IMG/VR virus record: IMGVR_UViG_2609460005_000002
Length of the DNA stretch: 7,368 nt
DNA from: a virus
Lineage: Duplodnaviria > Heunggongvirae > Uroviricota > Caudoviricetes
Reading direction: 5' to 3' (one strand)
In this document: piece by piece, positions 2,920 to 4,755 of the stretch
How positions within the stretch are numbered: the first letter of the stretch is position 1
How the letters are laid out: every line of letters begins with the position of its first letter
Made by a program: the position numbers and the translations under genes
The notes under the pieces: generated by a model
What the model saw: only the letters and a program-made list of their open reading frames with translations
Databases searched by the model: none
Told to the model about the DNA's origin: nothing

Positions 2920-3313
2920 AGCGGTGCCTTATGTCCGCAATAACCCGGACAAACTGCATCTGTTTGTGGATAACGGTTCGCTGGTTGCCACGGGGGCCAG
3001 CTCCATGTCATGGGAGTACCGTTACACCCTGAACGTGGTGATAGAAGATTTCAGCGGCGACCAGAATCTGCTGATGGCCCCGGTTTTGCTGTGGCTGCGG
3101 GATAACCAGCCCGATGCCATCAATAATCCGGCGTTACGGGAAAAGTTATTCACCTTTGAGGTGGATATTCTGCGCAATGATGTCTGTGATATCAGCCTGA
3201 ACCTGCAACTGACGGAGCGTGTGCTGGTCAGTACTGACGGCAGTGTGTCGAGCGTTGAAGCTATAGCGGAACCTGATGAACCTGAAGAAATGTGGACGGT
3301 GAAACGTGGCTGA
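2882..3313 (+). CDS. R: Tail completion protein, P2 gpR-like
   Basis: GTG at 2882 is preceded by GGAG (2870-2873) at 8 nt. The ORF-track start at 2861 is TTG with no RBS, so the exact start is uncertain. The translation (…LRHALNKAVPYVRNNPDKLHLFVDNGS…PVLLWLRDNQPD…) matches the gpR family pattern. Confidence 0.8.
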   Translation: MNKPQSLRHALNKAVPYVRNNPDKLHLFVDNGSLVATGASSMSWEYRYTLNVVIEDFSGDQNLLMAPVLLWLRDNQPDAINNPALREKLFTFEVDILRNDVCDISLNLQLTERVLVSTDGSVSSVEAIAEPDEPEEMWTVKRG

Positions 3314-3752
3314 ATTGCAGAAGGTGGACGACTGGCTGAGTGCCTTGCTGGCGAATCTGGAGCCAGCCGCAAGAAGCCGTATGATGCGCCAGCTGGCGCA
3401 GGAATTGCGCCGGACACAGCAGCAGAATATCAGGATGCAGCGCAATCCAGATGGCAGCAGTTATGAACCGCGCAGGGTAACAGCACGCAGCAAGAAGGGG
3501 CGCATCAAACATCAGATGTTTGCAAAGCTGCGCACCACAAAATACCTGAAAACTGCCGCCAGCGCCGACTCTGCCAGCGTACAGTTTGAAGGCAAGGTGC
3601 AGCGTATTGCCCGTGTTCACCATTACGGCCTGCGTGATCGCGTCAGTCGCAAAGGACCGGAGGTCCGTTACGCAGAGCGCCGCCTGCTGGGTGTAAATGA
3701 TGATGTTGAGGCAATGACCCGCGACATGATTCTGCAATGGCTGGCGGGGTGA
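3306..3752 (+). CDS. S: Tail completion protein, P2 gpS-like
   Basis: GTG start at 3306 overlaps the R stop by 8 nt. The 148-aa product is basic; its position after R and before the V promoter matches P2 order. Confidence 0.8.
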   Translation: MAELQKVDDWLSALLANLEPAARSRMMRQLAQELRRTQQQNIRMQRNPDGSSYEPRRVTARSKKGRIKHQMFAKLRTTKYLKTAASADSASVQFEGKVQRIARVHHYGLRDRVSRKGPEVRYAERRLLGVNDDVEAMTRDMILQWLAG

Positions 3753-3755
3753 TCT

Positions 3756-3775
3756 TTGTATCAGCACTGATACAA
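3756..3775 (+). promoter_or_regulatory. Late-promoter activator site (Ogr/Delta-family zinc-finger activator) upstream of V: TGT-N12-ACA dyad
   Basis: A perfect inverted repeat TTGTATCA-GCAC-TGATACAA (3756-3775) contains TGT (3757-3759), 12 nt, then ACA (3772-3774). It lies in the 68-bp S-V gap, where P2 carries its PV late promoter. The dyad is centred about 55 bp upstream of the V ATG. Confidence 0.6.
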
Positions 3776-3820
3776 GTTGCAGCACTGCCGCCTTTCTTCC
3801 CCTGATGGCAACCTTTCCCT

Positions 3821-4399
3821 ATGAACGCACAATTAACCGAAATCATGCGCCTTATCACCAATCTGATCCGCACAGGTGTAGTCACCGAAGTGGACCGGGA
3901 AAACTGGCTTTGTCGGGTGAAAACGGGCGACCTTGAAACCAACTGGATTAACTGGCTGACGCTGCGCGCGGGTAATGCCCGCACATGGTGGAAACCATCG
4001 GAAGGTGAGCAGGTGGTGCTGCTGAGTCTGGGAGGCAATCTGGAAACCGCGTTTGCGCTGCCCGCCATCTATTCGAATCAGTTCGCGCCACCGTCGACGT
4101 CGGCGGACGCCTGCGTGACAGAACATCCTGACGGTGGCTGGTTTGAATATGAACCCGCCACCGGGCGCTGGTATGTCAGGGGCATCAAATCAATGGTCAT
4201 TGAGGCCGCTGATAACATCACCATGAAAACCAGTGAGTTTGTACTGGAGGCTGACCGCACGCGCATTAACAGCGAAGTGGTGATCAATGGTGGCGTTACC
4301 CAGGGCGGCGGAGCGATGAGTTCTAACGGGATTGTGGTTGATGCACATCAGCATACTGGCGTCCTGAAAGGCGGCGACACAACCGGAGGCCCGGTATGA
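3821..4399 (+). CDS. V: Baseplate spike / assembly protein, P2 gpV-like
   Basis: 192-aa product with an N-terminal …LIRTGVVTEVD…RVKTGDLETNWINWLTLRAGNARTWWKPSEGEQVVLLSLGG… pattern and a C-terminal HQHTG…GGDTTGGP motif, as in gpV spikes. No clear Shine-Dalgarno precedes the ATG. Confidence 0.85.
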   Translation: MNAQLTEIMRLITNLIRTGVVTEVDRENWLCRVKTGDLETNWINWLTLRAGNARTWWKPSEGEQVVLLSLGGNLETAFALPAIYSNQFAPPSTSADACVTEHPDGGWFEYEPATGRWYVRGIKSMVIEAADNITMKTSEFVLEADRTRINSEVVINGGVTQGGGAMSSNGIVVDAHQHTGVLKGGDTTGGPV

Positions 4400-4755
4400 C
4401 GCTTTATAGCGGGATGAACAATACCAGCGGTAAAGCCATTACTGATATTGACCATCTGCGCCAGTCGGTGCGGGACATTTTGCTGACGCCGCAGGGTAGC
4501 CGCATTGCCCGTCGGGAATATGGTTCCCTGCTGTCGGCACTGATAGACCAGCCACAAAATCCGGCATTACGCCTGCAGGTCATGTCGGCAGTGTATGTGG
4601 CGCTGAGTCGCTGGGAGCCAAGGCTGACGCTGGATTCCATCACCATCAACAGCAATTTTGACGGTTCAATGGTGGTGGAGCTGACCGGGCGGCGGAATAA
4701 CGGTGTGCCTGTTTCCCTTTCCGTATCAACAGGAGCAGAGAATGGCAGTGATTGA
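4396..4755 (+). CDS. W: Baseplate protein, P2 gpW-like (T4 gp25-like family)
   Basis: ATG overlaps the V stop (ATGA), with GGAGG (4385-4389) at 6 nt. The 119-aa product (…RREYGSLLSALIDQPQNPALRLQ…) matches the gpW/GPW_gp25 pattern. Confidence 0.85.
   Translation: MTLYSGMNNTSGKAITDIDHLRQSVRDILLTPQGSRIARREYGSLLSALIDQPQNPALRLQVMSAVYVALSRWEPRLTLDSITINSNFDGSMVVELTGRRNNGVPVSLSVSTGAENGSD

Follow-up and report, generated by a model that had tools for sequence, protein, structure and literature searches.

The 68 bp between genes S and V of a P2-like prophage raise the question of how V is transcribed and translated: a dyad of the late-promoter type lies some 55 bp before the V ATG, and no Shine-Dalgarno (SD) sequence is visible in front of that ATG. 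The whole stretch of DNA analysed, referred to here as the window, is 7368 bp long and represents the late morphogenetic region of the prophage, reaching from the L homologue as far as the start of H. Over positions 3300-4400 it shares 95-97% identity with Peduoviridae phages of Klebsiella and E. coli, for example phage 500465-1 (Wadgaonvirus). The gene S homologue has a GTG start and closes the upstream late operon, and its position matches that of the S-type gene of phage 500465-1 and of P2. Its TGA stop codon (3750-3752) is followed by the S-V gap (3753-3820, 68 bp in full) and then by the V ATG at 3821. Using open reading frames (ORFs), Pfam and annotated relatives, the gene order was read as S, gap, V, W, J, I, H, with the gap heading a late operon syntenic with the one behind PV of P2. 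The ATG of W overlaps the V stop codon (ATGA at 4396-4399) and is preceded by a strong SD of its own (anti-SD pairing of −9.5 kcal/mol). An Rfam search gave no match anywhere in the 7368-bp window. The features used below are the following.

3306-3752, plus strand: gene S homologue (tail completion/virion morphogenesis); ORF, Pfam Phage_tail_S, E = 4.9e-42
3756-3775, no strand: predicted activator-binding dyad TTGTATCAG-CA-CTGATACAA; TGT-N12-ACA, matches the family consensus
3786-3791, plus strand: weak −35 region TGCCGC (−35 to −30); a poor match, as expected of an activator-dependent promoter
3809-3814, plus strand: predicted −10 hexamer CAACCT (−12 to −7), in the family register, with GG before it at 3807-3808
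3821, plus strand: predicted transcription start on the A of the V ATG (T 3820 = −1); from the P2 annotation and the promoter register
3821-4399, plus strand: gene V, baseplate central spike, 192 aa, ATG start; Pfam Phage_base_V (1.1e-17) and GpV Apex motif
4396-4755, plus strand: gene W homologue, next in the operon; ORF, annotated as baseplate wedge subunit in a relative

The full dyad sequence, TTGTATCAGCACTGATACAA, occupies 3756-3775. Two perfectly complementary arms of 9 bp each (3756-3764 and 3767-3775) flank a central CA that is non-complementary, giving 18 symmetric positions out of 20; the element had been described as a perfect 20-bp palindrome, which overstates its symmetry. The TGT-N12-ACA announced for the gap is present as a perfect match at 3757-3774, together with the T and A flanks of the extended TTGT...ACAA form, and the whole fits the family consensus TTGT(R)(Y)(S)A-N4-T(S)(R)(Y)ACAA. 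The TGT-N12-ACA consensus of late promoters is summarised in PMC3931495. The centre of the dyad had been put at 3765/3766, about 55 bp upstream of the V ATG. The measured distance from this centre (3765.5) to the A of the ATG was 55.5 bp; the centre also lies 44.5 bp upstream of A-11 (3810) of the −10 hexamer, which is the family register.

Within the window, TGT-N12-ACA was not enriched (2 matches versus 1.56 expected), and an inverted repeat with arms of at least 9 bp was seen in 18% of shuffled windows, rendering both counts uninformative as significance tests. Both results, like the missing terminator between S and V, would suit a palindrome that arose by chance or that serves an unrelated DNA-binding protein, with V expressed by read-through alone. 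Significance was judged by the position of the motif relative to the V ATG across loci, not by enrichment within the window. The second match in the window, TGTCGGCTGGATCAGACA, lies at 2755-2772 inside a lysB-like gene; it has no TTGT/ACAA flanks, G at the implied −11 and −7 positions and no −10, and was set aside as a chance occurrence. An 8-nt exact direct repeat, CAGCACTG, is found at 3762-3769 (the dyad centre) and again 18 bp downstream at 3780-3787, over the weak −35 region. It is missing from the Citrobacter version of the promoter (locus L086 of our set) and is probably due to chance as well.

For the comparison across loci, 160 V-homologue loci were collected (80 viral contigs and 80 genomes, one per species, from Escherichia to Xenorhabdus and Photorhabdus). 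The 80 nt upstream of each located V start were compared and collapsed to 68 regions less than 80% identical to one another. A perfect TGT-N12-ACA was found upstream of V in 49 of these 68 distinct regions, the chance rate being approximately 0.015 per sequence by our estimate. Of the 51 perfect occurrences in the 68 regions, 35 had their centre at precisely −55.5 relative to the A of the ATG and 49 had it within −54.5 to −58.5. In regions lacking a perfect match, most one-mismatch sites lay at −55.5 or −56.5. V genes 97-98% identical to that of the window can be preceded by sequence that is unrelated as far as the ATG, and the dyad and the −10 are nevertheless kept in register. Because dozens of upstream sequences that are otherwise unrelated carry the motif at one and the same distance from the V ATG, the dyad was considered to stand above chance. 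This positional conservation, the TTGT-N12-ACAA sites at other late promoters of phage 500465-1 with its Ogr_Delta gene, and the annotation of the homologous P2 site as the PV activator site make a fortuitous palindrome, or a site for an unrelated protein, with read-through alone extremely improbable.

The arms of the dyad can also form a 9-bp RNA stem just past the S stop codon, and P2 has a terminator after S, so that an RNA hairpin ending the S transcript (a terminator or a 3′-end stabiliser) was weighed against a promoter element. The original prediction had excluded an intrinsic terminator on account of a missing U-tract, and this was borne out: no T-run follows the dyad, GTTGCAGC coming next instead, and a terminator scan did not report the dyad. 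Intrinsic terminators combine a G+C-rich hairpin with a T-run; here the stem is A/T-rich, with 3 of 9 pairs G-C, and the RNA fold of 3740-3830 was not unusually stable (z = −1.18). Pairing was then compared in 45 distinct regions whose dyad lies at −55.5. Consistent complementarity was confined to the outer four base pairs (TTGT/ACAA), and nine contiguous pairs were seen in the window alone. The inner 12 bp showed no covariation in these 45 regions (91 complementary cells versus 95.3 ± 6.9 expected in shuffles) and thus pair no more than column composition predicts. Each half-site independently resembles TTGT-R-Y-S-A. Since only the outer pairs are complementary and the half-sites are alike, the dyad is read as a site for a dimeric or two-fold DNA-binding protein and not as a hairpin. 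The motif also stays fixed to the V ATG when the distance to S is 570 to more than 1400 bp, and a hairpin serving the S transcript is accordingly very unlikely.

The window (7.4 kb) ends in gene H, and the activator gene lies outside it. Phage 500465-1 matches the window at 95.5% identity over the region, and its S-V gap is identical. It encodes a 72-aa Ogr_Delta zinc-finger protein (E = 9.2e-21) directly after the D homologue, as in P2 and 186. Further TTGT-N12-ACAA sites were found in this phage between the terminase and scaffold genes (TTGTGTGGTTGTCGGTACAA; PO/PP) and before the sheath gene (TTGTGTGAATAACGACACAA; PF). Applying the 55.5-bp rule, leaders of approximately 30 nt, ending in GGAG or AGGAGG, are predicted for the scaffold (PO) and sheath (PF) transcripts, in contrast with V.

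Pairing with the anti-SD was calculated for the 20 nt before each of 14 gene starts. The value for V (−1.8 kcal/mol) was the weakest of the 14, confirming the earlier observation that no SD precedes the V ATG; it was weaker than that of approximately 70% of random 20-mers from the window, and 9 of the 13 other starts gave −5.6 to −10.3 kcal/mol. V thus has the AUG start without an SD that is expected of a leaderless mRNA. The ATG at 3821 comes first among the in-frame starts that follow a stop codon, with none further upstream. From this codon, the V N-terminus (MNAQLTEIM...) aligns from Met1-Asn2 with P2 V and 186 Orf32 (48 and 51% identity, respectively). The in-frame ATG at 3845 (Met9) was rejected as the V start; it has no SD (+0.1 kcal/mol) and the Met is not conserved. 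Among the homologues, the V start was ATG, at or nearest the homologous position, in 163 of 164 loci, that is, in all loci with a callable start; the script that called the starts selected for ATG, hence this count is not an independent test.

A position profile was prepared from the 45 distinct regions with the dyad at −55.5, numbering the A of the ATG as +1. TTGT occupies −65 to −62 and ACAA −49 to −46; T-T-G at −35 to −33 is weak and G-G-C is common at −14 to −12. A-11 was present in 43 of the 45 regions and T-7 in 44, a pyrimidine preceded the start codon at −1 in 39, and +1 was A in all 45. Within the sigma-70 −10 hexamer, no positions are better conserved than A-11 and T-7, and a pyrimidine at −1 followed by A at +1 is the preferred context for a transcription start. 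This register places the transcription start on the V start codon. In these alignments, the dyad, the −10 and the ATG hold one fixed register across dozens of unrelated upstream modules, which is a modest addition to knowledge.

In the window, no promoter was called in the S-V gap by a sigma-70 consensus scan. CAACCT keeps both A-11 and T-7, and TGCCGC is a poor −35, giving the sigma-70-type −10 with a poor −35 that is expected of activator-dependent late promoters of the P2 family. Transcription of V is predicted to start on, or within a base of, A3821. Because CAACCT and TGCCGC are weak matches, a start displaced by 1-2 nt is possible, and the −10 hexamers of P2 and 186 lie one base further from the ATG, from which it follows that the register tolerates some play.

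In the P2 RefSeq record (NC_001895), the PV activator site spans 10239-10266, its centre being 10252.5. Transcription of the V operon is annotated there as starting at 10308, on the first base of the V coding sequence and 55.5 bp from the centre of the activator site, so that the P2 V mRNA is recorded without a leader. Comparison with PV, as had been proposed, thus yielded the same 55.5-bp geometry, with the start annotated on the A of the V ATG. The dyad had been called unusually close to the V start; this distance is in fact the norm across V homologues. Its assignment to an Ogr/Delta/B-type activator was upheld by the conservation of position and by the sites and the Ogr_Delta gene of the relative, whereas the anomaly in spacing was not. 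As for the three explanations offered for that spacing, a leaderless or nearly leaderless V mRNA was retained; a different spacing rule falls away, since with the predicted start the −55 position is obeyed, and so does a different V start, given the conserved Met-Asn.

The S-V gap is therefore best explained, with a probability of roughly 0.85, as the PV late promoter of a P2-like (Peduoviridae, Wadgaonvirus-like) prophage, of the Ogr-dependent type and probably giving rise to a leaderless V mRNA. The leaderless call is inferred from homology with P2 and from promoter geometry. Alternatively, the dyad might be the late-activator site while V has a short leader or another start codon and is translated conventionally or from an internal initiation site. 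The one-base shift of the −10 in P2 and 186 shows some flexibility, and an in-frame ATG is available at 3845. A-11 and T-7 are, however, exactly in register with the ATG as +1, neither ATG is preceded by an SD (−1.8 and +0.1 kcal/mol), and ATG 3821, the first in-frame start, aligns with Met1 of P2 V and 186 Orf32 while Met9 is not conserved. With the P2 start also annotated on the ATG, such a leader or alternative start is unlikely.

For the leaderless PV transcript, the following mechanism is proposed. Elsewhere in its genome, the phage would encode a small zinc-finger protein of the Ogr/Delta/B family. This activator would bind the TTGT-N12-ACAA dyad centred at −55.5 and bring in the sigma-70 RNA polymerase of the host, the −10 of the promoter being recognisable (CAACCT) and its −35 poor. 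In P2, published work has the late activator recruiting polymerase through its alpha subunit. Starting at A3821, the polymerase would produce a V-W-J-I-H... mRNA without a 5′ leader and without an SD for V, and V would be translated by the leaderless route, with ribosomes binding the 5′-terminal AUG. The downstream genes would use ordinary SD sites, W being coupled to V in addition through the ATGA overlap. Because the gap is compact and has no terminator, read-through transcripts from upstream would carry the V AUG internally and without an SD; V output would then come mainly from leaderless transcripts initiated at PV. Leaderless translation is usually modest in E. coli, and a modest yield would suit a low-copy spike protein.

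This architecture is already documented for PV of P2-like phages and is ordinary, not an anomaly. P2 PV resembles the promoter in the window in standing before V-W-J-I-H, in its site at −55.5, in a V gene without an SD, in a CAAyCT-type −10 and in the homologous V N-terminus. It differs in its S-V gap of 940 bp, which holds a 786-bp cargo gene (orf30) and a terminator, the window having a bare 68-bp promoter; in its imperfect dyad (TGT-N11-ACA by our reading), where the window has a perfect motif with 9-bp arms; in its −10, CAATCT, one base further from the ATG than CAACCT; and in V itself, which is merely 48% identical. The orf32 promoter of coliphage 186 (protein B) is likewise found in a compact gap, of 69 bp, after the S homologue (gene O), and lacks an SD; CATTCT lies one base upstream of the −10 position of the window and a TGT-containing element approximately 56 bp before the ATG. 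Its site differs in not being within one mismatch of TGT-N12-ACA, and the promoter is unannotated in the record used. Neither P2 PV (L001:10239-10266) nor 186 p32 (L002:9660-9685) contains TGT-N12-ACA within one mismatch, and the window site is closer to the textbook consensus than the type-phage sites that defined this promoter class.

PF and PO/PP of P2, 186 and 500465-1 resemble PV in having a TTGT-N12-ACAA activator site and in depending on a protein of the Ogr family. They differ from it by their leaders, which in P2 carry an SD and span 23 to 40 nt (23 nt for P, 40 nt for O and approximately 25 nt for FI in the P2 record) and are predicted at approximately 30 nt for PF and PO of 500465-1; PV has none. 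Outside this family, the leaderless mRNAs of lambda (cI, from PRM) and of Tn1721 (tetR) are similar to that of V in being translated from a 5′-terminal AUG without an SD. Those are regulatory genes behind unrelated promoters, whereas V is a structural late gene heading a polycistronic operon. According to Shell et al. 2015 (PMC4633059), the few leaderless genes that have been studied in E. coli come from lambda, P2 and Tn1721; Christie & Calendar 1985 is among the references they list for these genes.

The S-V junction was also compared as a site of exchange (window 3753-3820 versus loci L004-L163). Gap lengths were bimodal. Most compact gaps measured 65-79 bp, among them those of the window (68 bp) and of 186 (69 bp), whereas the long ones, which hold inserted cargo, ranged from 570 to more than 1400 bp. 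This marks the junction as a hotspot for cargo insertion. Where phages have near-identical V genes, their homology stops right at the V ATG. In one locus, L077, the −10 region is that of the window but the dyad is different, so breakpoints also occur inside the promoter. Since unrelated upstream sequences keep the register of dyad and −10, the promoter is taken to be exchanged as a module whose downstream boundary is the transcription and translation start. In four Xenorhabdus prophages (L137, L138, L141 and L158), a promoter-proximal piece including ATGAAYAC... appears, by eye, to be duplicated some 30-75 nt before the V ATG. The promoter-adjacent ATG of L137 opens a 10-codon mini-ORF (MNTQLSIPTL), the TGA of which overlaps the real V ATG (ATGA). 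This arrangement, again read by eye, would swap leaderless translation of V for a leaderless mini-ORF coupled to V.

A related geometry was observed at the terminase gene when the 80 nt before the terminase large-subunit ATG were compared (500465-1, L003:10196-10270, and loci L164-L243). In the Wadgaonvirus-like lineage, PO and PP share a dyad, and its centre is exactly 55.5 bp away from the ATG of the terminase large subunit (the P homologue). These upstream regions have TAGGTT, TATGTT or TAGGCT at −12 to −7 and are without an SD or a predicted leader; T-12, A-11 and T-7 were kept in 46 of 46 distinct versions. P2 and 186 have a 23-nt leader before the terminase gene, in P2 with a GAGG-type SD. 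By this geometry, the terminase operon may be a second leaderless late operon in the Wadgaonvirus-like lineage.

When the region is annotated, 3821 should stay the V start even though no ribosome-binding site precedes it, and the 68-bp gap should carry the label of an activator-dependent promoter. Taken alone, the locus has little significance: PV and the leaderless V mRNA of P2, known since 1985, are found again in a P2-like prophage of Klebsiella/E. coli. The P2 late-promoter paper of that year, by Christie and Calendar, is said to have described both. We tentatively suggest, as a conjecture somewhat short of an even chance, that leaderless V is a selected, family-wide device of P2-like phages and no peculiarity of P2, in which promoter modules of unrelated sequence, exchanged along with cargo genes, always restore the dyad, the −10 and the ATG as +1. 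V would thereby be tied exclusively to activator-dependent transcripts and its yield held below that of the SD-driven downstream genes, an arrangement perhaps extended to the terminase operon. As a large collection of naturally occurring leaderless promoters, those upstream of V would help in studying how the choice of start site and leaderless translation stay in step.
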